From positions 1 through 60,723 of IMG/VR virus record IMGVR_UViG_3300027743_000005: a stretch of DNA of 60,723 nt; one strand, given 5' to 3'. This document shows, piece by piece, positions 4,130 through 53,803 of the stretch. Source of the DNA: a virus (taxonomy: Duplodnaviria; Caudoviricetes). The notes below the pieces were generated by a model. That model was not told the origin of the DNA and did no database searches. It worked only from the letters and a program-made list of their open reading frames with translations. Made by a program: the position numbers and the translations under genes. Positions within the stretch are counted from its first letter, which is position 1. The number at the start of each line of letters is the position of its first letter.

Positions 4130-4390
4130 TCACGAGATCACCCCTCTCAGCCGCTTCACTCCGGCTTCGGGCCTGCTCACATCGGTGAAGGCCACGCCTC
4201 CCCGGATGCCGTACAGCGGCAGTCCGGCGTCGTGCTCGGCCACCGCCTCGGTGGCGCACTCCACCCGCACCGGGCAGGTGCGGCACTGCGCCAGCGCCAG
4301 CGAGCGCTTGGCCCGGCCCGCGCGTCCGGTGCCCCACTCGTCGGGGAAGGGGCTGTGCGCCCCCTCCCGCTCACACGCTGCGCCGGTCAT
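4130..4390 (-). CDS. whiB: WhiB-family Fe-S transcription factor
   Basis: C...CRTCPVRVEC and YGIRGG (variant of GVWGG). Confidence 0.85.
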   Translation of the reverse strand: MTGAACEREGAHSPFPDEWGTGRAGRAKRSLALAQCRTCPVRVECATEAVAEHDAGLPLYGIRGGVAFTDVSRPEAGVKRLRGVIS

Positions 4391-5004
4391 GCCAGCCTCC
4401 GGCGCGTCCGGCGCATGAGCACGCCGCCCACGCCCATCAGCAGCACCGCCGTGCCGATGAAGAGCTCCGGGCCGGAGCCGGTTGCGGGCAGCGTGGTCAC
4501 CGGGGCTGTCCGGGGCAGCACCACCACGCCGGTGACCGGCGGCGGGGTGACCGTGACCGGCGTGTCGATCTGCACCGGCACGGTGGTGACCACCGGCTCG
4601 GGCGCAGGCGGGGTGTCGCTGGTCGGCGGTGCGTAGATGGGCACGTCGTCGGACACGCACTGCGGTGGCCCACCGATGGGCGCCCCGTAGTGCATCCCCT
4701 CGGGGCAGGGCGGCATCGTCGTGGGTGGGGCCACCGGCCCGCAGTCCACGCTCGACCAGTCGATGGTGTAGCGGGCCTCCTCGGAGCCACCGTCCCAGAT
4801 GATGCGGACCAGCGTCGGCCCGCGCGTCCCGGTGGCATCGAGGCGTGCCCGGTGCTCGTAGCGGGTGGAACCCAGCGGTCCCACCGCGGCCTGGAAGTTG
4901 TCCCCCGTCTCCACCCGCGCGTCCGCCGCGACCGGGTTGGTGATGACGACGTGGGTGATCTTGGCGGACTCGCCGCAGGTGATCGGCTCGACGGTGACGC
5001 TCAT
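4387..5004 (-). CDS. LPXTG cell-wall-anchored protein (LPATG), no clear signal peptide
   Basis: Pro/Thr linker, TLPATG, hydrophobic helix, RRTRRR tail. Confidence 0.8.
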   Translation of the reverse strand: MSVTVEPITCGESAKITHVVITNPVAADARVETGDNFQAAVGPLGSTRYEHRARLDATGTRGPTLVRIIWDGGSEEARYTIDWSSVDCGPVAPPTTMPPCPEGMHYGAPIGGPPQCVSDDVPIYAPPTSDTPPAPEPVVTTVPVQIDTPVTVTPPPVTGVVVLPRTAPVTTLPATGSGPELFIGTAVLLMGVGGVLMRRTRRRLA

Positions 5005-5132
5005 GCCGTCCCCCACCACATGGCCAGGGCGACGGCGACCACGAACAGCACGAAGCCGGTCAGGACCCACTGCCACGAGGGCTGCACCGGCCGGTTGTCG
5101 GGCTGCTCGTCGAGCTCCGGGAAGGCGGTCAT
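5001..5132 (-). CDS. Small single-TM protein (43 aa)
   Basis: MTAFPELDEQ...WVLTGFVLFVVAVALAMWWGTA; ATGA overlaps at both ends. Confidence 0.6.
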   Translation of the reverse strand: MTAFPELDEQPDNRPVQPSWQWVLTGFVLFVVAVALAMWWGTA

Positions 5133-9427: not shown

Positions 9428-10809
9428 CCACCGCCGTCGACCCGCAGGCGTACAAGGGGTGGTCCCCGGCGGCCCAGGCCAAGGCCCTGGAGAAGCTCCA
9501 GGCCGCCCGCAACGAGGCGTGGCGCCCGTTCTACTGCCCCGATGCGGCCTGCAACGGCAAGCCCCACGACGTGTGGGAGTGGAACCACGCCCGGGCCGAC
9601 CAGCGCCCGCCCACCGACGCCGACTGGCTGGTGTGGCTGCTGAAGTCGGGCCGGGGCGCCGGGAAGACCCGGGCCGGGTCGGAGTACACGCACCGCATGG
9701 CCAACGTGACCCACCGCCTGGCCATCGTGGGGGCCACCGGCGCCGACGTGCGCGACATCATGCTCGAAGGCGAAAGCGGCCTGCTGACCATCGCCGCCCC
9801 CGACTTCCGCCCCGCCTACGAGCCGTCCAAGCGACGGCTGACGTGGCCCAACGGCGCCGTGGGGACGACGTATTCGGCCGAGGAACCCGACCGCCTGCGC
9901 GGCCCCGAGCACGGCTACGCCTGGATCGACGAACCGGCCCACTGGGCCCTGATCCAGGAGGCGTGGGACAACCTGCTGTTCGGCCTGCGGATCGGGCGCC
10001 GCCCCCGCATCTGCGCCACCACCACGCCCAAGCCCCGCAAGTGGATGAAGGAGGTCACCGCCGACCCCCGCACGCGCCTGGCCACCGCCAGCACCTACGA
10101 CAACATCGACAACCTGGCGCCGACCTTCGCCGAGATCGTCATCGCCCGCTACGAGGGCACCCGCCTGGGGCGCCAGGAGATTCACGGCGAGCTGCTCGAC
10201 GACATCGAGGGCGCGCTGTGGACGTATGACCTCATCGAACCCGACCGCCTGCCCTTCGCCCCCGAGCTGACCCGCGTGGTGGTGGCGGTGGACCCCGCCG
10301 GTACCGCCAACAAGACCTCCGACGAGACCGGCATCATCGTCGTCGGCTTCCTGGAGGGCCATCTCTACGTGCTGGCCGACCGCAGCGGGCGCTACTCGCC
10401 GCTGGGGTGGGCCAAGGCCGTCGACGCCGTCTACGACGAGTTCGCCGCCGACGCCGTGGTCGCCGAGAAGAACTACGGCGGCGACATGGTGCGCCACACG
10501 TTGCAGTCGGCCGGTGTCACCAAGCGGATCATCCTGGTCACGTCACGGCGGGGCAAGGCCATCCGGGCCGAGCCGATCGTGGGGGTCTACGAGCAGCACA
10601 AGGTCCACCACGTCGGCATCTTCCCTGAGCTCGAGGAGGAGATGACCTCCTGGCGGCCGTATGAGGACAACTTCAGCCCCAACCGCCTCGACGCCCTGGT
10701 CCACGGCGCGACGAACCTGCTCGGGCGCCACGCCCGCGCCGACATCGCCACGCCTGCGTCGCTGCGCCAGCGGGCGGAGTCGGCCGGGCTGAGTGTGGTG
10801 GCGTCGTGA
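9424..10809 (+). CDS. terL: Terminase large subunit
   Basis: GRGAGKT Walker A, LRGP..AWIDE Walker B, TTTP, VAVDPA nuclease motif, DETGI, NRLDAL. Confidence 0.96.
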   Translation: MTTAVDPQAYKGWSPAAQAKALEKLQAARNEAWRPFYCPDAACNGKPHDVWEWNHARADQRPPTDADWLVWLLKSGRGAGKTRAGSEYTHRMANVTHRLAIVGATGADVRDIMLEGESGLLTIAAPDFRPAYEPSKRRLTWPNGAVGTTYSAEEPDRLRGPEHGYAWIDEPAHWALIQEAWDNLLFGLRIGRRPRICATTTPKPRKWMKEVTADPRTRLATASTYDNIDNLAPTFAEIVIARYEGTRLGRQEIHGELLDDIEGALWTYDLIEPDRLPFAPELTRVVVAVDPAGTANKTSDETGIIVVGFLEGHLYVLADRSGRYSPLGWAKAVDAVYDEFAADAVVAEKNYGGDMVRHTLQSAGVTKRIILVTSRRGKAIRAEPIVGVYEQHKVHHVGIFPELEEEMTSWRPYEDNFSPNRLDALVHGATNLLGRHARADIATPASLRQRAESAGLSVVAS

Positions 10810-34353: not shown

Positions 34354-34851
34354 CTAGCCCACCACACACGTAGCCACGACCCGGTTCTGATCGGGGTCGC
34401 GCTCGTGAACGGTGATGGTCGCCACCGTGAAGCCTCTCGGGCACGTTGGTCCCGGTGGTCCTTGCGGGCCAACCTGGCCCATCGGTCCGGCCGGACCTGG
34501 CCCCCCGACTGGTCCGGCCGGACCTTCCGCTCCATTCTCCCCCGGCGGCCCCTGGGCGCCTGTAGCGCCTGTTGCGCCCGCTGGCCCTCGTTGGCCCGCT
34601 GTGCCCGTTCCCGGCGGCCCTGCGGCGCCCTGGCTACCCTGTGGCCCTTCTGGTCCCGCTGGGCCGGGCGCGCCTTGCGGCCCGGGGGGGCCTGTCGCTC
34701 CGGGGTCACCTGCCGCCCCGGTCGACCCGGGTGGGCCGACCACCGTGATCGGCGGTGGCGGCTCGCTCTGGACAACTGCCGCCGTAGACGCGGCCACCGA
34801 GGTCGCGCCGAGCACCGCGCCAGCGGCCAGGAGGATGATGTCGAGTCTCAC
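34354..34851 (-). CDS. Secreted/membrane-anchored collagen-like protein
   Basis: Hydrophobic N-terminus, long GXY run, C-terminal TCP.G...TC. Confidence 0.85.
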
Positions 34852-43733: not shown

Positions 43734-44361
43734 TCAACTACCCGGCGGGTTCGTACTCCCGCTGGGTAGATCTTGCCGCTTGCGGGGCGGCTCGTACACC
43801 TTGCCCCGCATGATTCGGCATGGAATGCAGGTCGGGGTGCAGCGCCGGGCGCCGTCACCCCACCGTTGGTCGGTGCAACCGGGCGGGCACACGCACGCCT
43901 TCCCGGCCATGTTGTCATCGTCGCAGCTGTAGTGGCGGGTGCGGCCAGGAACGGCCACAGGGCGCCCACAGATGTCGCTGCGGGGGGCGTGGGCCAGGAA
44001 CTGCCGGGCACGCTCCTCCGAGGCGAGTCCGGCCGCTCTGGCCTGCGTCATGGCATCCCGCACGCCCTCGGGGACGTGACGGCGTCGGCTAGCCACCAGC
44101 CGTCCAGTCGTGGCAATTGCCGCAGTACGACTCCCGGGCGTCGTTGGGGTTGTAGCTCGTCATCCCGCAGCGGGGGCAGGTGTAGCTCCCGGCGGGCTTG
44201 ACGTGGTGCCAGATGCCTTCCTCGCTGATCGCCCACTCCAGCGCGTCGATGTAGTCCCACAGGTTGACGAACCCGGCCTCGTGCGCTCGGGCCACTAGCT
44301 CGGCGGTGGCGAAGTGAGAGAGGGGCAGGCCCGTGAGCCTGCCCCTCGCCACGTCAGACAC
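43734..44361 (-). CDS. Two small Cys-rich hypothetical genes (43734-44051, 44089-44361)
   Basis: Multiple CxxC; TCPRCGMTSYNPND...YCGNCH. Confidence 0.6.
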
Positions 44362-45784
44362 GGCGCAGGCCGCGACGCCGGGTGAGCCAGATCAGACCGG
44401 CGCCACCGGACACGACCAGGAGGCCGCCGAACACCAAGGGCAGAGCGTCGGTCCCCGTCGCCGGGATGGAGCCACCACGGTTGGGCGGCACCGGCACCGC
44501 CTCGCCCGGCGTGAACGGCCCCTCGGGGCTGTTGCAGGCCGCCGTCTCGGGCGGATAGGCGATGTCGGCCTCGGACGTCAGCACGTCGGTCGCCTGCTGG
44601 AACAGCGGGCGCGACTCACCGAAGCCTGCGGGCAGCCCCGCCTCGCCGCCGGTCACCGGCAACGTGGCCACGATGTGCAGCCCGTCGCGGAACTCGGCGT
44701 CGCTCGGGTCGAGGACCCAGAACCCGTCGTCGTTCAGCATCCAGCCCGGCCAGTCCAGAGCCTCGCCCGTCACCGGGTCGACCTCAGCGCCGGGGTAGAC
44801 GACCCGGAAGCTGGTGTTGGCCTGGTAGACGATCTGGTGCGACTCGATCACGTCGCCGTCGAGGGTGCGGAACTCGAGAGTGCCGACTGTCCCGTTCAGC
44901 TCCGGCTGGTTGCCGAAGGTCAGTTCCACGAAGGGCGCGTCGCGCACGCACACGGTCGAGGCCGAGCCGATCGAGAACACGACGGGCGCCACCAGGGGTG
45001 TCGTGCTCGTGCCACCAGGCGGTAGCCCGGGGGCCGTGGTCGTGGTGCTCGGCGCGGTCGTCGTGCTCCCCGGCAACGTCGTCGTGCCACCCGGCACCGT
45101 GGTCGTGCTTCCAGCCACGGTCGTCGTGGTCGTTCCGCCGACCTGCGTGTCCGGCGTGCAGTCGGGGCAGGTCGTCGTGGTGCCCCCGGTGGAAGGAGGC
45201 GTGGTGGTCGTCCCGGTGGTGCCGGGGCAGAGGCCACTGATGTCAGGCGGCGGGCCACCGTTGTCGAAGCCGACCACGATGCTGCGCTCCTGCGCGTCGG
45301 CGAACTGGTCCCCGATCTGGACGTTGGGCCCAGGTGGGTTGGGGATGGCGTTCACACTCACGCTGATCGGCTGCTTGCCCGGCTTCAAGACCTCGGCCTC
45401 GCCGGGCTTGCGGACGTACTTGCACACCCACACCTTCTTGGGCGTCTCGGTGGTCGTAGTGGCCTCGGTGGTCGTCGTCGTGGCCTCGGTGGTCGGGATC
45501 GTCGGCACCGTGACCGGGTTGGTCACCGGCACCGTCGTCGACGCCGCTGTCGTGGTCGACGCCGCTGTGGTGGACGTCGTCGACGTGGGATACGACGGGT
45601 GTGTGGTCGTCGAGTAGGTCGGCGGAGCCGACGAGGACGTGGGATACGTCGGGTGGGTCGTCGGGTAGCTCGGCGCTGTGGTCGTGGGGTACGTCGGTGG
45701 AGGCCAAGCGTCAGCCCTCCCGACCCACAGACACACGATGCCCAGCACGGCGGCCAGCACCGCAACGATGGCGGTCCTTCTCAC
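44354..45784 (-). CDS. Secreted Thr/Pro-rich cell-wall-anchored protein (IPATG sorting signal)
   Basis: Signal peptide ending RADA, mucin-like repeats, KVWVCKYV domain, IPATG + TM + RRRGLRR. Confidence 0.88.
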   Translation of the reverse strand: MRRTAIVAVLAAVLGIVCLWVGRADAWPPPTYPTTTAPSYPTTHPTYPTSSSAPPTYSTTTHPSYPTSTTSTTAASTTTAASTTVPVTNPVTVPTIPTTEATTTTTEATTTTETPKKVWVCKYVRKPGEAEVLKPGKQPISVSVNAIPNPPGPNVQIGDQFADAQERSIVVGFDNGGPPPDISGLCPGTTGTTTTPPSTGGTTTTCPDCTPDTQVGGTTTTTVAGSTTTVPGGTTTLPGSTTTAPSTTTTAPGLPPGGTSTTPLVAPVVFSIGSASTVCVRDAPFVELTFGNQPELNGTVGTLEFRTLDGDVIESHQIVYQANTSFRVVYPGAEVDPVTGEALDWPGWMLNDDGFWVLDPSDAEFRDGLHIVATLPVTGGEAGLPAGFGESRPLFQQATDVLTSEADIAYPPETAACNSPEGPFTPGEAVPVPPNRGGSIPATGTDALPLVFGGLLVVSGGAGLIWLTRRRGLRRV

Positions 45785-46724
45785 GATGGTCCCTCTCTGT
45801 TGGTGATGCCGAGTCGCTCCATCGCCTCCGCCATGCGACGCGCGCTCGACCGCTTGCCCTCTTCGGTGGTCATGTCCACTTCAATCAGCTCGTCGCAGAC
45901 GAGGACGAGTTTGGCCGGTGGCTTCGATCCGGCGGTGATGGCGCCGATCATGGGCTTGTCGAGCAACACGGCGTAGCCGGTCTCGATGGCCAGCTTCGGG
46001 TCCGTCGCCCCCGACCACAGCGTCATGATGATGGCGCTGTCCTGCATCATGGGAAGCAGCTCCCGCCGAGCTCTCTCCAGATACGCCCTGGCCTGAGGGT
46101 CCTCGGACCAGTCCCTCGGTCTTCCTCCTGGCACGGCTGGTTCCTTTCAAGGTGGGAATCTTGTCAGCAGTCGGTCACGCTCAGTGCCAGACGACGTCAC
46201 CTGCCCTTTCCCGAGGGTCCGGGTCCATGCGGACCCGGACGAACTCGTAGATGGCGCCGCCGATCAGCGAGCCGATGGCGGCGGCGATGAACACCGCCAG
46301 GAGGGTCCTCTTGGTGTAGTGCAGCTTCATGGCCAGTGCTCCTGCATGTAGGCCAGCCCGAACAGGAGGCTGGCGATGGTGAAGATCGACAGACACGTCG
46401 CCAGGACGATGGCGAAGGCGGTCATGCACGCGCCGATGGCGACTACCTCCCACGGCGGCCGCTGGCGGCGGGTCACTCGATGACCTCGACGTCGGTCCGC
46501 TGGCTGTAGCGGGCCAGGATGACCGGGCGCCCGGTGGCACGCCGACATAGTTCGGCGTGCCAGCGGTAGCTCTCGATGCGCTCCCGGTCGGCGCCCATCA
46601 GCGGCATCCACCAGCCGTCGCCGGTGCGGTACCCGATCACCCCCTCTCCGTCGCTGGGGTCGGTCGACAGCCACGCCCACATCTCCTCGATGCGGGGGAA
46701 CGGTTGCTCGCCGTTGTCAGCCAC
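45781..46724 (-). CDS. Four small genes (45781-46134; 46181-46330 TM; 46327-46476 TM; 46473-46724)
   Basis: Coupled overlaps; SD GAAAGGAACC before 46134. Confidence 0.6.
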
Positions 46725-47319
46725 AGGCCCTCCCTGTCATCGGATCGCCGCGCAGCACCCAAGGGCACCATCCGCTGTGCTGCCATAGGTTGAACGCCGC
46801 GGTGAGGTTCGACCAGGGGTCAAAGCACCCATTCGGCGGACACGGCCATCCGCATAGCTGCATGAGGCCGAGCGCGTGGGCGCGCCCGCACGGCTGCGGG
46901 TTGTAGGCGCCCGGCCGACAGCCGGACTCCCGGTGCATCACGTAGCTGAGGACCCGACCCTGCTCCTCGGGCCACCCGATCTGGGCGGCCATCTCGTGCC
47001 ACTCCTCGCACCACTGCCACTCCGCTCGAGGTGGAGGTGGCGGTGGGTTCTGCGTGCACAGCAACTCGGCCATGAAGTCACAGCCGTGATTGGTCCGCAC
47101 TGCCATGCTCGGGGCTGGCTCCACTTCGATGCCCTCGGCCATCATGGGTGGCGCCGGGGGCGGTACGTCTTCCGCCGATGGGATCGCCTCCGGCACTGTC
47201 GATGGCGGCGGTGCGGTGGAAAGCAGATGGCTCGGCGGTACGTCGGTGTCGGTAGGCGTCGGTGTGGGGGGCGTGAACACGGCGAGCAACAAGCAGCCCG
47301 TCAGCGCCACGACCCTCAC
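46717..47319 (-). CDS. Secreted lytic transglycosylase (SLT/lysozyme-like)
   Basis: Signal-like N-terminus, Pro linker, RESGCRP.A.N...GLMQL...DPW.N...W.PW. Confidence 0.8.
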   Translation of the reverse strand: MRVVALTGCLLLAVFTPPTPTPTDTDVPPSHLLSTAPPPSTVPEAIPSAEDVPPPAPPMMAEGIEVEPAPSMAVRTNHGCDFMAELLCTQNPPPPPPRAEWQWCEEWHEMAAQIGWPEEQGRVLSYVMHRESGCRPGAYNPQPCGRAHALGLMQLCGWPCPPNGCFDPWSNLTAAFNLWQHSGWCPWVLRGDPMTGRACG

Positions 47320-47499
47320 CGGCTGGCCTCACAGTCCCGGCAGATGCCGAGTTGGACGGTTCCTGGTGACGGACGGGTAACAGATACAAGCCGCACTCGC
47401 CGACAGCGGGTGCAATAGCCGATGATCATCATTGCGGAGTGTCCTCTCCGTGGTAGTGGGCGGGCCGGGACGCGTGGGGCGTCCCGGCCCGATTGCTGG

Positions 47500-49779: not shown

Positions 49780-50024
49780 TGATCTACGAGCCGATGCCAG
49801 AGGAGGAGCGCGTCCTCGACTCGTCCCAGCGGCGCGTCACCGCCGGGTTGCTCGCTGAGGACGAGCGCCGAGAGGCCATCCGCGCCCTCTACCGGGCGGG
49901 CATGACCCAGCGCGAGTTGGCCGAGCGCATGACCAAGGCCAGTCTGTCCGTAGGTGGCCCGGTGGTCACCGAGAACAGCGTGCAGAAGATCATCATGCGG
50001 CTACGGGTGAAGGAGCGGGTCTGA
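49779..50024 (+). CDS. Small HTH protein
   Basis: RREAIRALYRAGMTQRELAERM. Confidence 0.7.
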   Translation: MIYEPMPEEERVLDSSQRRVTAGLLAEDERREAIRALYRAGMTQRELAERMTKASLSVGGPVVTENSVQKIIMRLRVKERV

Positions 50025-50668
50025 TGGCAGTCCGAATCCATGAATCGCTCCACGGTCTGATGGTCCCCATCGACATGCTGATCCCCTGGCCGGACAACCC
50101 TCGCAGCGGCGACCTGTCGGCGTTGAAGGAGTCCATCCGCAAGAACGGCTACTACCAGCCCGTCGTGGTTCAGCGCTCGACCAAGTACGTCATCGCCGGG
50201 AACCACCGGATGCAGGCCATGCAGGAGTTGGGCGCCGTCGAGATACCGGCGCTGTTCGTGGACGTGGACGACGTGTCGGCCACCCGTCTGGCGCTCGCTG
50301 ACAACCGCACCAGCGACCTCGCTTTCTACGACGACGAGCAGTTGTTCAAGCTGCTCGAGGAGCTGGTCGCCAAGGACTCTCTCGACGGCACCGGCTACGA
50401 CCGCAGCGCCTTCGAGCTTCTGCTGCAAGGCGTGGGCGGAGACAACGTGACCGGCGGCATCCGTCAGGGCCTCATCCCCGGCGAGCGCCTGGACGAGTAC
50501 AACGACCTGGACATTCGCTCGATCATCCTCCCCTACGCCGGTGAGGAGTACGAGGTCGTGGCGACGGCTTTCACGCACATGCGCCAGGCTCTGTTCGTGG
50601 ACACCAACGCCGAGGTCGTGAAGATCCTGCTGACCAAGGCGCTGGAGGAAGTCGACGTTGAGCCATGA
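50024..50668 (+). CDS. ParB/Srx N-terminal domain protein
   Basis: L.PWPDNPR, SI..NG..QPVVV, VIAGNHR, LADNRT. Confidence 0.9.
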   Translation: MAVRIHESLHGLMVPIDMLIPWPDNPRSGDLSALKESIRKNGYYQPVVVQRSTKYVIAGNHRMQAMQELGAVEIPALFVDVDDVSATRLALADNRTSDLAFYDDEQLFKLLEELVAKDSLDGTGYDRSAFELLLQGVGGDNVTGGIRQGLIPGERLDEYNDLDIRSIILPYAGEEYEVVATAFTHMRQALFVDTNAEVVKILLTKALEEVDVEP

Positions 50669-51080
50669 TCCCCTGCGACGTGACGGTGTGCCCCAACGAC
50701 GCCGAGTGGGCCTTCATCGGCGAGGGTGGCGACCTCTACCTGTGCGACGACCACTTCGACTTCAACGTCGGGGACTCATCCCACTGGCGCCCTATCCCCC
50801 GCGAGGAACCGGCGTGACGACCTTCCTCATCGTCGCCCAATACCAGCACGCGCTGGAGTGGTGCCGCGAGCAGGACCCGCCTCGCAACCCGCGCGCCCGC
50901 GACCTCGTCATCATCTCGGTGGACAGCAACGACGCCACGTTCCGGCTGCGGGGCCGCAGGATGCAAGACGGCGATGAGGTCGTCGAGCACGTGATCTACA
51001 GCCATCTGTCGCAGCGTGGCTGGGAGACGCTCGGCGCCGTCGAGCACGAACTGGACATGATGCGGAGGTTCAGCGTCTGA
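50665..51080 (+). CDS. Two small hypothetical genes (50665-50817, 50814-51080)
   Basis: ATGA, GTGA and TGATG overlaps. Confidence 0.55.
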
Positions 51081-52096
51081 TGCAGCGCCTGCAATCGTCC
51101 ATCGAGCGGGTCACGTTGAAGCGCGGCGTGCCGATGACGCCGTGTACCTACGCCGTCGACACCAGCGAGCGGTGGGCCGGGACACTGGCGACGTGCGGAG
51201 CGATGATCCCGCACCGTCCCAAGCACCCCTGCCCGGAGTGCGGCCAGCACCAGATCAACGCCCACGCCCCTGACCCGCCCGAGGGAGCGCTCATCTTCGA
51301 CCGCGACGTCGCCATCGTGGACGCTGCCTCCAAGCAGGTCGTCGGGGTCTACGTCACGTGCGCCCACGACATCGCCACCAACCTCGCCGCCGACCTGCGT
51401 CAGGTCGACTTCGACTCGGCGCCGTTCATGCGAAGCCCGTCGACCGCGGCGCGCCTCAGCGGCATCTCGGCGGCCAGCCGGACGTTCGGCTACCAGCCCC
51501 CGGTGCCCATGCGTCGCCGCTACGGCTGCTCGCGCTCGCAGTTCAACGCCCAGCACCCCGCCGCCGCCGAACACCTGGCGGAGTTCTGCCGGGTGGCCGA
51601 GCGCGCCATGCGGACCTACGCCGAGGACGTGTACGCCACCACCGCCGATCAGGTCCGCAAGGCGATCCCCAGCGCCTGGCTCATCGCCGGGACGCCGTGG
51701 TCGAGCGGGATCATCAACAAGACGGCCTCGCTGCCCTACCACACCGACAAGGCGAACATTCCGATGTCGTGGTCAGCCATGCTCGGCGCTCGACGCAACA
51801 TCGAGGGCGGGCTGCTGCACTTGGCGGACTACGACGCCTGGTTCACCATCAGCCACGGCAGCATCATCATCTTCGACGGCCAGTCGGTGACCCACGGCGT
51901 GAGTCCGCTGCACCCCTCAGGAGCGAACCCCTGGCGCTACACGTGCGTCGTCTACGCCAAGCAGGGCATGAAGGTGTGCTGCGGCGACCCCAAGGAGGAG
52001 GCGAGGCGCGCCGCCCGCGCCGCCACCGACGCCGAGACGCTGCGGATCGGCAACCGCATCACCAAGCGCGGCCCCCGGCAGCGCAAGAAGGGCTAG
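51080..52096 (+). CDS. TET/JBP-like 2OG-Fe(II) dioxygenase
   Basis: TPWSSGIINKT..LPYHTDKAN (HxD), GG.L, FDG....HGVSP, RYTCVVY. Confidence 0.85.
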   Translation: MQRLQSSIERVTLKRGVPMTPCTYAVDTSERWAGTLATCGAMIPHRPKHPCPECGQHQINAHAPDPPEGALIFDRDVAIVDAASKQVVGVYVTCAHDIATNLAADLRQVDFDSAPFMRSPSTAARLSGISAASRTFGYQPPVPMRRRYGCSRSQFNAQHPAAAEHLAEFCRVAERAMRTYAEDVYATTADQVRKAIPSAWLIAGTPWSSGIINKTASLPYHTDKANIPMSWSAMLGARRNIEGGLLHLADYDAWFTISHGSIIIFDGQSVTHGVSPLHPSGANPWRYTCVVYAKQGMKVCCGDPKEEARRAARAATDAETLRIGNRITKRGPRQRKKG

Positions 52097-52614
52097 ACCA
52101 GCTGGCCGAAGGCGAGGAAGAACCCGCCCGGCAGCGAGGTCTGCACCATCAGGTCACCGAACGGCGGCTCGATGTTGGACGTGACCGCTTCGACCCTGAT
52201 GATCTCGTAGGCGCAGGCCACCGAGGGCGACCAAACCTCCAGCCGGTCCCCAGCGTGTAGCTCGGGGATGCGGGCGAAGGGCGAGCCGTGGGTGGAGCGG
52301 TGGGCCGCCAGGTGTAGGTGAGCGCACGGTTCGCCGGTGAAGGAGACCAGACCCTGGTCGATGACGTCCTGCCCACCCCGCACGGCGTTGAACACCCCGA
52401 CAGGCATCGCCACCGTGAAGCTGTCGTCGTGGTGCGGCGCGCGTCGCGCCCTCGCTCCCGCCGCCCCCGGTGCGAGGGCGCGGTGAACGAGGTCGGTCGT
52501 GGTGGGATCGGGCACAACCTTGCGAACGTCGGGCACCCCTGTCGATCGCAGCATCCATGCGACCGCCACGACCAACAGGGCCACCAGCGTCAGAGCGATG
52601 ACGTCACGGAGCAG
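52093..52614 (-). CDS. Membrane-anchored sortase-fold protein, Ser at the catalytic Cys position; start uncertain (CTG 52614 after GAGGAGG)
   Basis: N-terminal TM; LAAHRSTHGSPFARIPELHAGD..EV...YEI; L.VQTSLP aligns to sortase LTLxTCxP. Confidence 0.7.
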   Translation of the reverse strand: MLRDVIALTLVALLVVAVAWMLRSTGVPDVRKVVPDPTTTDLVHRALAPGAAGARARRAPHHDDSFTVAMPVGVFNAVRGGQDVIDQGLVSFTGEPCAHLHLAAHRSTHGSPFARIPELHAGDRLEVWSPSVACAYEIIRVEAVTSNIEPPFGDLMVQTSLPGGFFLAFGQLV

Positions 52615-53803
52615 GCGCGTCCTCCTCGTCGTCGGGTACCCAGAGAACCGGCATGATGGCGAACTCGATGAGGCCGAGCCTGATGCAGACCTCGATGATG
52701 GCGCCCTGCGTGGTGTTGGGCGGGAGGGTTGTCTGCTTGGCGAGACGGATCGCATCCCGCATCATCTCTGGCATCCGGCCGGACCCCGGTCCCTCCATCC
52801 AGAGTTCCTCGCCCGCCCGCGGCCCGTCGACAGTGTGGGTCACGCTCACGTCCTGACTCTCGTCGGCCGTGTCGACGCCCTGCACGACGAGGCAGGTGTG
52901 GACGTTCTGGTCGCCCGCTTCGTGGGCGCGGGCCATGTCGCCGTGGCGCATCGTCTCCGCCGCCTTCCGGCCCTCCTCCTCCTTGTAGTCCCGGGTCCAC
53001 GCCTCAACGATGTTGACGACCAGTTCGGTGTCGCGCCGGAACGACGCCAGGATCATCGCCGTCTCGGCGAAGGCGGGGGCGAGGTCCTGGGATGGGGCCA
53101 TCCGCACGACGAGGTAATCCCTCGGCCCGCAGATGATGAGCATGGGTGATAGCTCGCCGTCCCGCTCGAAGTTCTCGACGGCCCCGGTGAGCAACTTCTC
53201 GATGTGCTCGCGGTGTCGGCTCACGACGCCTTCTTCCGGGCGCGCTTGGCCGGGGCCTTGACCGGCCGCTCGACACCGCCGAGGCGCCTGACCTCGAGCT
53301 CCCGCTTGGCCAGCCAGAAGCGCTTGCTGTCTCGGTCGTCGAAACCCAGGCCCGCTTCCCGGTAGCCGTCGGGGTGCATGTAGCTCCGGCCCAGGAGCTG
53401 ACCGCCACGGTCGTTCACCACGTCCTCGCGGACGCAGTCGCAGCGCTCGCAACGCAGCGTCAGCTGGTTCCCGCCCAGCTTCGGTCGGCGCACGGCGTCG
53501 GCCGCGAACCAGGCATGGCCGATGGTCTGACACGTGATCATGTCGTCAGTGGTGGCCATCGTCGCCGTCCTCGATGATCTCCACGATGTCCTCGACCGGG
53601 ACGGGGAACAGCGTGTCCCGGTCGAACTCTGGGAACCGCACGCCGCACTGCTCTCGGTCGCCGTGCCGGGGCACGTCCCGCTCCTCGTCACTGATCGAGG
53701 CCCGGGTGCCGGGCGCGTAGACCAGCGTGCCGATGTTCCCTTCCCTCGTCCGCACCTTCGCTCGCCGCGCTGCGGCTTTGACCAACTGGACTCTGTCGTA
53801 CAT
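52604..53803 (-). CDS. Three hypothetical genes (52604-53224, 53221-53559, 53546-53803)
   Basis: Coupled overlaps; SD GGAGAGGAACC before 53803. Confidence 0.65.

Follow-up and report, generated by a model that had tools for sequence, protein, structure and literature searches.

Our analyses have identified a small lineage of sortase-like proteins in which the nucleophile position is occupied by Ser, and one member of this lineage is encoded by the stretch of DNA studied here (referred to as the window), viz. the complete uncultured virus record IMGVR_UViG_3300027743_000005, which is 60,723 bases long with direct terminal repeats and ~69% G+C. The window is assigned to a tailed phage because it contains genes for a terminase large subunit, a portal, a major head protein and a tape measure; an Amidase_2 endolysin is also encoded. 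The open reading frame (ORF) in question, at 52093–52614 on the minus strand (the Ser-variant gene), is a real gene, and the Ser at the nucleophile position of its product represents a fixed and selected state, not decay, because it is conserved across the family and the ratio of nonsynonymous to synonymous substitution rates (dN/dS) is below one. According to sequence comparisons, the small lineage formed by these proteins (the 'LQTS' proteins) occurs in Acidimicrobiia and in phages whose hosts are probably Acidimicrobiia, and the Ser-variant barrel is derived from class E sortases. The explanation to which we tentatively incline is that the gene encodes a host-derived, exported accessory protein with a Ser-His site on a sortase barrel, which acts at the cell wall and is not the sortase of the phage's own LPATG and IPATG (xPATG) proteins.

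Conservation of Ser at the nucleophile position

A preliminary description of this gene had reported that the sortase His is kept, that Ser (codon TCG) replaces the Cys at a distance of more than one substitution from a Cys codon, and that no Arg follows. These observations are all borne out: TCG is two changes away from the Cys codon TGY, and the last 13 residues of the protein, LPGGFFLAFGQLV, contain no Arg. The peptides quoted there, viz. LAAHRSTHGSPFARIPELHAGD, YEI and LMVQTSLPGGFFL, are likewise all present in the translation of 52096–52614 (minus strand). Of four alignments (A1–A4), three are referred to separately below: A1, which consists of 8 sequences of the phage subfamily; A2, a wider set that includes class E relatives; and A3, a 17-sequence alignment of the family. 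The features of the gene, all on the minus strand, are as follows.

52093–52614, minus strand: coding sequence of the Ser-variant sortase-like protein, 173 codons from CTG plus the stop codon TAG at 52095–52093 (translation, G+C at the third codon position (GC3), homologues, dN/dS)
52612–52627, minus strand: Shine-Dalgarno (SD)-like GAGGAGG at 52627–52621, 6-nt spacer and putative non-canonical CTG start at 52614–52612 (sequence; kept in locus L003)
52543–52611, minus strand: N-terminal hydrophobic helix, residues 2–24, signal anchor or cleavable signal peptide (AlphaFold2 helix 2–24, pLDDT ~95)
52423–52443, minus strand: RxPHHDD motif, residues 58–64, just before strand 1 (R58, P60, H61, H62, D63 and D64 invariant in 8/8 of A1)
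52357–52359, minus strand: Asp86 codon, in IDQG (invariant column in A3; aligned by HMMER to the Asp of LDRG in SrtE1, 5cuw)
52300–52302, minus strand: His105 codon, in LAAHR, the position of the sortase catalytic His (invariant in A1–A4; aligned to the GHR motif of SrtE1)
52135–52137, minus strand: Ser160 codon TCG, where sortases have their catalytic Cys (LMVQTS vs LTLTTC; invariant in 8/8 of A1 and 17/17 of A3)

The preliminary description had proposed that conservation of the Ser in homologues be checked. Ser160 is invariant in all of the sequences of A1 and A3, and class E relatives have TC at the aligned place; the remaining invariant columns of A3 are D86, G88, H105, H109, F113, G122 and Q158. 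Word-indexed searches found 7 proteins, and then 93 with the profile, and an exhaustive search, which covered 1.84 billion representatives, found 23 proteins at E<=0.001 and 3 at E<=1e-10. Among all of the proteins collected, 49 carry L-x-L-Q-[TC]-S at the place of TLxTC and 50 carry the Cys motif. The former correspond to 33 distinct proteins after exclusion of cluster members and of P0002, which is identical to the window protein, and Ser is present in every one of these, even though distinct members of the family share only ~30% identity. Homologues at 55–70% identity are found in other phage contigs. The window protein has the characteristics by which the lineage is recognized, viz. L-x-L-Q-T-S, (A/G)H(R/H)(S/T)(S/T)HG, a short turn to the last strand and a chain that ends 11–19 residues after the Ser. 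Three proteins and the locus L034 read 'LQTC' at this place. One member of the phage subfamily (P0006; L097, 102–524) reads LLIQCSLPGG, with a Cys at the position of Thr159 beside the conserved Ser.

In a maximum-likelihood tree of 59 rows, a starred branch (100/98) separates 41 family rows from 17 class E rows and the 'LQTC' protein P0043. The phage subfamily (8 rows) forms a starred clade (100/100) inside an otherwise unresolved family, and a 'LLQTC' protein, P0011, branches first, at the base of the family. The root of this tree was set by the outgroup, L034 lies on a long branch, and the class E set comprises 17 of the ~50 Cys-type hits; P0041 (a fragment that lacks the His motif), P0002, P0009 and P0010 (identical sequences or fragments), P0018 and P0033 were omitted. 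For five phage pairs, the dN/dS values obtained by the Nei-Gojobori method range from 0.42 to 0.66.

These results bear upon the suggestion that a sortase gene was captured and that the Ser-variant gene is what remains of it, in decay or without function; a decaying copy among Cys-bearing close homologues had been named in the preliminary description as an outcome that would refute its proposal. The non-canonical start, the sub-threshold Pfam and NCBIfam scores described below and the lost catalytic residues would all accord with decay. However, the frame is intact with coding-type GC3 (GC by codon position of 0.72/0.48/0.87 for 52093–52614), the same Ser and motifs occur in 8/8 proteins of the phage subfamily and in distant cellular relatives, dN/dS is below one in 5/5 pairs, and the structural model is a confident one. 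No frameshifts or stops were seen in the Ser-variant gene in loci L002, L003, L004 and L092–L100. The conserved Ser and the dN/dS values thus speak against decay, which was already disfavoured and which we consider extremely improbable.

The phage subfamily has been found on three IMG/VR contigs and nine metagenome contigs, one of each being the window phage itself. Among GenBank phages, no DNA match to the region around the Ser-variant gene was found, and hence no near relative there; tblastn searches of the same phages with the window protein (P0001) and with a cellular relative (P0014) also gave no match, and a class-E-like query (P0021) gave weak matches in 7 phage records, none of which are actinophages. 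In cells, among 80 species-representative genome loci, the Ser type is present in six (L005, L006, L008, L016, L019, with two tandem genes, and L076), all of which are Acidimicrobiia or unclassified Actinomycetota metagenome-assembled genomes, and the rest are Cys-type. One cluster of the family bears the NCBI name 'sortase domain-containing protein [Ilumatobacter sp.]'. Of 151 Acidimicrobiia genomes sampled, 36 gave a match at E<=1e-12, with only 3 places above 70 bits, 2 of which a motif check confirms as Ser-type (L101 and L102); by the same check L105 and L109–L112 are Cys-type, and L103, L104 and L106–L108 have no motif match. The Ser-type family is therefore rare in Acidimicrobiia.

Members of the family have signal peptides or anchors. 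In the cellular members P0034 (42.1 bits), P0027 (27.2 bits) and P0134, a PG_binding_1 domain is located N-terminal to the Ser-type domain, with P0019 (L006) just below the cut-off, and P0135 contains a long C-terminal repeat region. The gene neighbourhoods of the cellular Ser-type genes differ among the 8 loci scanned. By eye, the 'LVLQTC' gene of L034 (8531–14063) and the Ser-type gene of L076 (9978–10514) adjoin ORFs that look like Flp/Tad or type IV pilins, and the neighbour in L076 has a GFTLIEL prepilin-type N-terminus, as read from the translations.

Predicted fold, active site and start of the gene

The AlphaFold2 model of the Ser-variant protein, which was built from a 65-row alignment, has a mean pLDDT of 85.9 and consists of a helix (residues 2–24), a disordered linker (34–46) and eight strands spanning residues 65–172. 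A Foldseek search of the PDB with this model gave 110 matches at E<=0.001, with SrtE1 (5cuw) at the top and all of the best 30 listed being sortases, which agrees with the sortase fold proposed in the preliminary description. The fold result is not independent of the sequence result, because the alignment for the model included class E sortases. At the sequence level, the 17-sequence A3 profile matches Streptomyces coelicolor SrtE1 (5cuw) at E=7.8e-12, followed by 39 more sortase chains, and the nearest Atlas clusters of the Ser-variant protein consist of sortase-domain proteins; PHROGs contain no family for it. A comparison with the Pfam Sortase profile (PF04203) gave a divided outcome: the window protein alone scores 22 bits, below the cut-off of 26.6, over profile positions 39–87 of 125 only, but its relatives P0034 (36.4 bits), P0038 (43.3), P0023 (37.9) and P0011 (65.2) pass. 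The NCBIfam class E sortase model NF033747 matches residues 101–146 only, at 28 bits against a curated cut-off of 160.

Of the characters that define the sortase superfamily (PF04203, MEROPS C60), the eight-stranded beta-barrel is present in the predicted model and the catalytic His after strand 4 is represented by His105. The Cys of TLxTC is replaced by Ser160, and the Arg at the start of strand 8 is absent. Among the 33 distinct Ser-type proteins, ~9 have an Arg after the Ser, and the phage subfamily lacks it altogether; in the Cys-type relatives it is found in 49/50, at a median of 8 residues after the Cys. Asp86, which the alignment places at the Asp of the LDRG sequence of SrtE1, is a possible third member of a triad. 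The two Cys residues of the protein, C97 and C134, sit elsewhere in the sequence than the nucleophile position, and by their place in the strand order of the model they are unlikely substitutes for the nucleophile.

The predicted barrel is trimmed. Its beta3/beta4 loop has 5 residues (95–99), its beta6/beta7 loop 10 residues (145–154) and its turn from the nucleophile to the last strand (beta8) 2–4 residues. The spacing from His to nucleophile is 55 residues, which is also the median of the family, compared with 60.5 in the Cys-type relatives found and 69 in SrtE1. Since these loops and the turn are shortened relative to SrtE1, the parts that read LAXTG or LPXTG signals would appear to be reduced in the Ser-variant barrel.

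The hydrophobic N-terminus, which is also seen in the L004 and L096 homologues, suggests that the Ser-variant protein is exported and is either tethered to the membrane or released by cleavage of a signal peptide. The RxPHHDD motif is invariant in the phage subfamily only and absent from cellular relatives, with P60 alone near-invariant in the wider set; to judge from its sequence, it may serve in metal binding or in processing. The hydrophobic N-terminus is followed directly by this motif in L004 and L096. A search of BFVD with the model gave only 2 matches at E<=0.001, and one of these, A0A0E3M3L1, an uncharacterised 198-residue protein of the cultured Streptomyces phage TP1604, may to judge from the models represent a further sortase-fold protein of a phage.

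The coding frame changes at about 52600–52620, where the upstream gene stops (its TGA, 52606–52604, minus strand, is located inside the start region of the Ser-variant ORF). This excludes as the gene the longer ORF that begins at ATG 52755, since its additional stretch codes in the frame of the upstream gene. A CTG start 6 nt after GAGGAGG had been suggested earlier; its position is exact, but its use as the start is only plausible on the evidence of related sequences. In L003, the same CTG is kept together with GAAGAGGAG and the SD-like run, and L004 has a canonical GTG at the codon equivalent to CTG 52614; initiation at or near 52614 is therefore the best guess. GTG 52584 is an alternative start, which would truncate the hydrophobic segment. 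The ATG at 52554 (Met21), from which the gene call of the database (P0002) begins, is ruled out, since L003 has GCG at this codon and a protein begun there would lack the hydrophobic helix. Fusion to the upstream gene by a frameshift is disfavoured, as it would place a hydrophobic anchor midway in a cytoplasmic-looking protein, which makes little sense.

Proposed function and gene context

In the explanation that we prefer, the phage would most likely have acquired the gene from its host as an accessory ('moron') gene, and the protein would most likely be a catalyst that acts on the outer side of the membrane, forms an acyl-enzyme by means of its Ser and His and has hydrolase or transpeptidase activity, in a lineage that can do without the canonical Arg. 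It would act on peptidoglycan or on peptides linked to the wall, and the envelope of the infected cell would be altered as a result. Export, catalysis by Ser160, a wall substrate and a benefit to the phage are the inferred parts of this proposal, which builds on the fold, homology, conservation pattern, phylogeny and gene contexts shown by the analyses. A more specific version is rather unlikely in our estimation. In this version, the 'LQTS' proteins represent a branch of the sortases that naturally employs a serine nucleophile and uses a Ser160-His105-Asp86 triad on the sortase barrel to form acyl-enzymes with wall peptides, and phages of Acidimicrobiia have captured one of these proteins for re-tailoring host peptidoglycan or wall-anchored proteins; if true, a serine enzyme derived from a sortase, and its use by a virus, would both be firsts. 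The Asn at the place equivalent to Asp86 in Staphylococcus aureus SrtA was reportedly once proposed as a third catalytic residue.

Several observations weigh against a catalytic role at the wall. The absence of Arg from the window protein and its scarcity after the Ser in the family argue against sortase-type chemistry and, on the sequences at hand, would be equally in keeping with a non-catalytic role. Replacement of the Cys of S. aureus SrtA (Cys184) by Ser or Ala is reported to abolish its activity. The fold match depends in part on sequence homology, given the class E sortases in the alignment of the model, and the Pfam score of the window protein is below the cut-off. The PG_binding_1 fusions are confined to the cellular relatives, outside the phage subfamily; the dN/dS values are rather high; and the putative start codon is a non-canonical one.

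The principal alternative, related to the dead sortase trap raised in the preliminary description, is a pseudo-sortase without catalysis, whose trimmed barrel would bind e.g. sorting signals, lipid II or wall peptides at the interface of membrane and wall and would block or divert the anchoring of host surface proteins or pilus assembly, e.g. for superinfection exclusion. With two of the three canonical catalytic residues gone (Cys changed to Ser and no Arg), an Arg that is not conserved in the family and shortened substrate-reading loops, such a protein is conceivable, and its moron-like variable gene positions would suit this role as well, including a position beside an anti-defence-type gene in L096 and L098. 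In both of these loci, the Ser-variant homologue follows a gene for a SNF2-type helicase and an Acb2/Tad1-hairpin gene. The latter (L096, 998–1273; L098, 2–286; Pfam 77.1 bits) lies directly upstream of the homologue; the Acb2/Tad1-hairpin domain defines a family of anti-CBASS/anti-Thoeris sponges. However, a mere binder need not keep Ser in all 33 distinct proteins, at the low identity they share, together with an invariant His and Asp, and the basal relative P0011 still has Cys there, which suggests that the position stays functional. We regard this rival as unlikely, though it deserves serious weight.

The preliminary description had combined the sortase-like gene with two sorting-signal proteins, a secreted SLT protein and a secreted collagen into one cell-surface system. 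The features concerned are as follows.

44354–45784, minus strand: secreted protein with a signal peptide, whose sorting signal (IPATG + hydrophobic + RRRGLRRV) makes it a possible substrate of a sortase
4387–5004, minus strand: LPATG + hydrophobic + RRTRRR protein without an N-terminal signal peptide (translation; L114 relative)
34354–34851, minus strand: membrane-anchored collagen-like protein (Pfam Collagen 55.9 bits; the L004 homologue lies directly upstream of the Ser-variant gene)

Both of the sorting-signal ORFs exist, and the IPATG protein has a signal peptide, but the LPATG protein does not, either in the window or in its L114 relative, and it is therefore not a canonical sortase substrate. 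The LPATG protein begins MSVTVEPITCG, and its ATG overlaps (ATGA) the stop of a 43-codon ORF at 5001–5132 (minus strand), which encodes a single hydrophobic helix, MTAFPELDEQPDNRPVQPSWQWVLTGFVLFVVAVALAMWWGTA; the L114 relative agrees with it at the N-terminus and in the LPATG tail and has another gene upstream. The IPATG protein has no Pfam or PHROG match. Its homologues in L085 (IPITG), L086 (LPETG) and L093 keep the sorting signal, and those in L087–L091 lack the hydrophobic tail, a stop codon following immediately on LPATR, LPPTR, LPPAL or LPATE; such ends may reflect truncation of the sorting signal, a frameshift or a C-terminal tag of another kind. The collagen protein was confirmed, as a membrane-anchored protein. 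The secreted SLT protein was not, as its only match (46849–46956, within 46717–47328, both on the minus strand) has 18.1 bits against a cut-off of 21.3. This sub-threshold match lies in the same leftward block, ~1 kb upstream of the IPATG gene.

A dedicated serine-type sortase, by which the LPATG and IPATG proteins of the phage would be anchored to the host wall, is suggested by the presence of two proteins with sorting-signal tails in the same genome and by the syntenic locus L093, which holds both the Ser-variant gene and an IPATG homologue. The latter is the only relative that carries both and is not an independent case, and most of the evidence points the other way. The IPATG and LPATG genes are ~6.3 and ~12.5 kb, respectively, from the Ser-variant gene and adjoin it in neither case. 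The co-occurrence with LPXTG-type genes in phages, a check proposed earlier, did not hold: the Ser-variant gene is present in 0/5 viral records with homologues of the IPATG protein, one of which is rated 100% complete, most viral records being fragments. The L004 record (39.7 kb, 56% complete) contains the Ser-variant gene, no homologue of the IPATG protein and no sorting-signal ORF among 47 coding-like ORFs, in a scan that recovers both xPATG ORFs in the window. Likewise, no sorting-signal ORF was found within ~8 kb of the Ser-type gene in the 8 cellular loci scanned. All five (5/5) of the Acidimicrobiia genomes with a Ser-type gene also encode class-E-like sortases, 3 of them above the curated cut-off, which could serve such substrates, and the Ser-variant protein lacks the Tyr and the loop elements with which SrtE1 reads the signal. 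A complex prediction of barrel residues 58–173 (with the A3 alignment) and the IPATG tail (408–450) returned a score of 0.02 (mark 0.32), which speaks neither for nor against such a substrate. With the genes apart, the co-occurrence not kept, the loops trimmed and the likely hosts equipped with their own class E sortases, the idea of one system that unites the sortase-like protein with the two xPATG proteins is not upheld, and a dedicated sortase seems to us improbable.

The position of the Ser-variant gene varies among phages, and it thus behaves as an accessory gene. In L004, the gene order is a collagen-like gene (9432–9944), the Ser-variant gene (9929–10339, overlapping the former), a 68-aa ORF and an Amidase_2-type endolysin gene, and in the window as well the collagen-like gene adjoins the endolysin gene, the two being arranged tail-to-tail. 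This arrangement would be expected of a wall factor for lysis or virion release that works with the collagen-like membrane protein and the endolysin. However, in the window and in L003/L093 the Ser-variant gene closes an early-type operon and is separated from the lysis genes by ~18 kb, and its neighbours are different again in L096, L098, L099 and L100, all of which makes a role in lysis quite improbable. The collagen-like proteins of the window phage and L004 have in common a conserved, Cys-containing C-terminal knob. In L096, the Ser-variant homologue faces a gene for a secreted protein with SpaA-type domains, and in L099 and L100 it follows a secreted glycoside hydrolase (GH)-like protein (sub-threshold GH39 match); many of the neighbours of the phage Ser-variant genes are exported proteins.

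In the window and in L003/L093, the operon that ends with the Ser-variant gene runs leftward and contains a helix-turn-helix/excisionase-like protein and a DUF3846 protein. The Ser-variant gene is convergent there with a ParB-like gene and a gene for a Tet/JBP-type 2-oxoglutarate (2OG) oxygenase. The window pair, viz. a ParB-N-domain protein (49859–50668, plus strand) upstream of the 2OG-Fe(II) oxygenase (51080–52096, plus strand; Pfam 37.1 bits, PHROG 6059), may be a DNA base-modification module. The stop codons of the oxygenase gene and the Ser-variant gene (TAG) share the palindrome CTAG, and no terminator was found between these two convergent genes in the window.

Comparison with known sortases

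Sortases are cysteine transpeptidases that are widely used as tools for protein ligation. Full-text literature searches, for which subscription journals and supplements were outside reach, found no paper on a natural serine sortase. The Ser-variant protein shares with SrtE1 (5cuw) the (A/G)HR(S/T)THGxxF motif, the Asp of LDRG/IDQG, the Thr before the nucleophile, an N-terminal anchor and an actinobacterial origin. In SrtE1, the catalytic residues are His251, Cys320 and Arg329, the beta3/beta4 loop of 16 residues bears Tyr229 and the beta6/beta7 loop forms the pocket for the Leu of the signal (PMC5148588). The corresponding residues of the Ser-variant protein are His105 and Ser160, with no Arg; its beta3/beta4 loop is reduced to 5 residues and Tyr229 is not kept, its His and nucleophile are 55 residues apart instead of 69, and 2–4 residues instead of 8 separate the nucleophile from beta8.

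Sortases of phages were, among the papers found, first reported in an October 2026 preprint, in which the Cys is kept (bioRxiv 10.64898/2026.10.24.761521). These are class B sortases of gut 'huge phages' (>200 kb) with intact His, Cys and Arg and with a putative substrate gene always immediately upstream (bioRxiv 10.64898/2026.10.24.761521). They resemble the present case in that a sortase-fold gene is located on a phage genome that also encodes sorting-signal proteins (bioRxiv 10.64898/2026.10.24.761521). In contrast to these Bacillota-type class B enzymes with an adjacent substrate, the window is a genome of 60.7 kb whose sortase-like protein is class-E-derived and has Ser, no Arg and no adjacent substrate.

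A Ser that is fixed, with the His kept and the Arg dropped, would imply either serine chemistry on a sortase barrel or a barrel that has been turned into a binding module, both of which would be new for this fold. The domain is small (~115 residues) and should express easily, so that the question is directly testable. The presence of the Ser-variant gene on phage genomes adds a further case of viruses that carry envelope-directed host genes, one which differs from the sortases of the huge phages in its class, its nucleophile and its surroundings.

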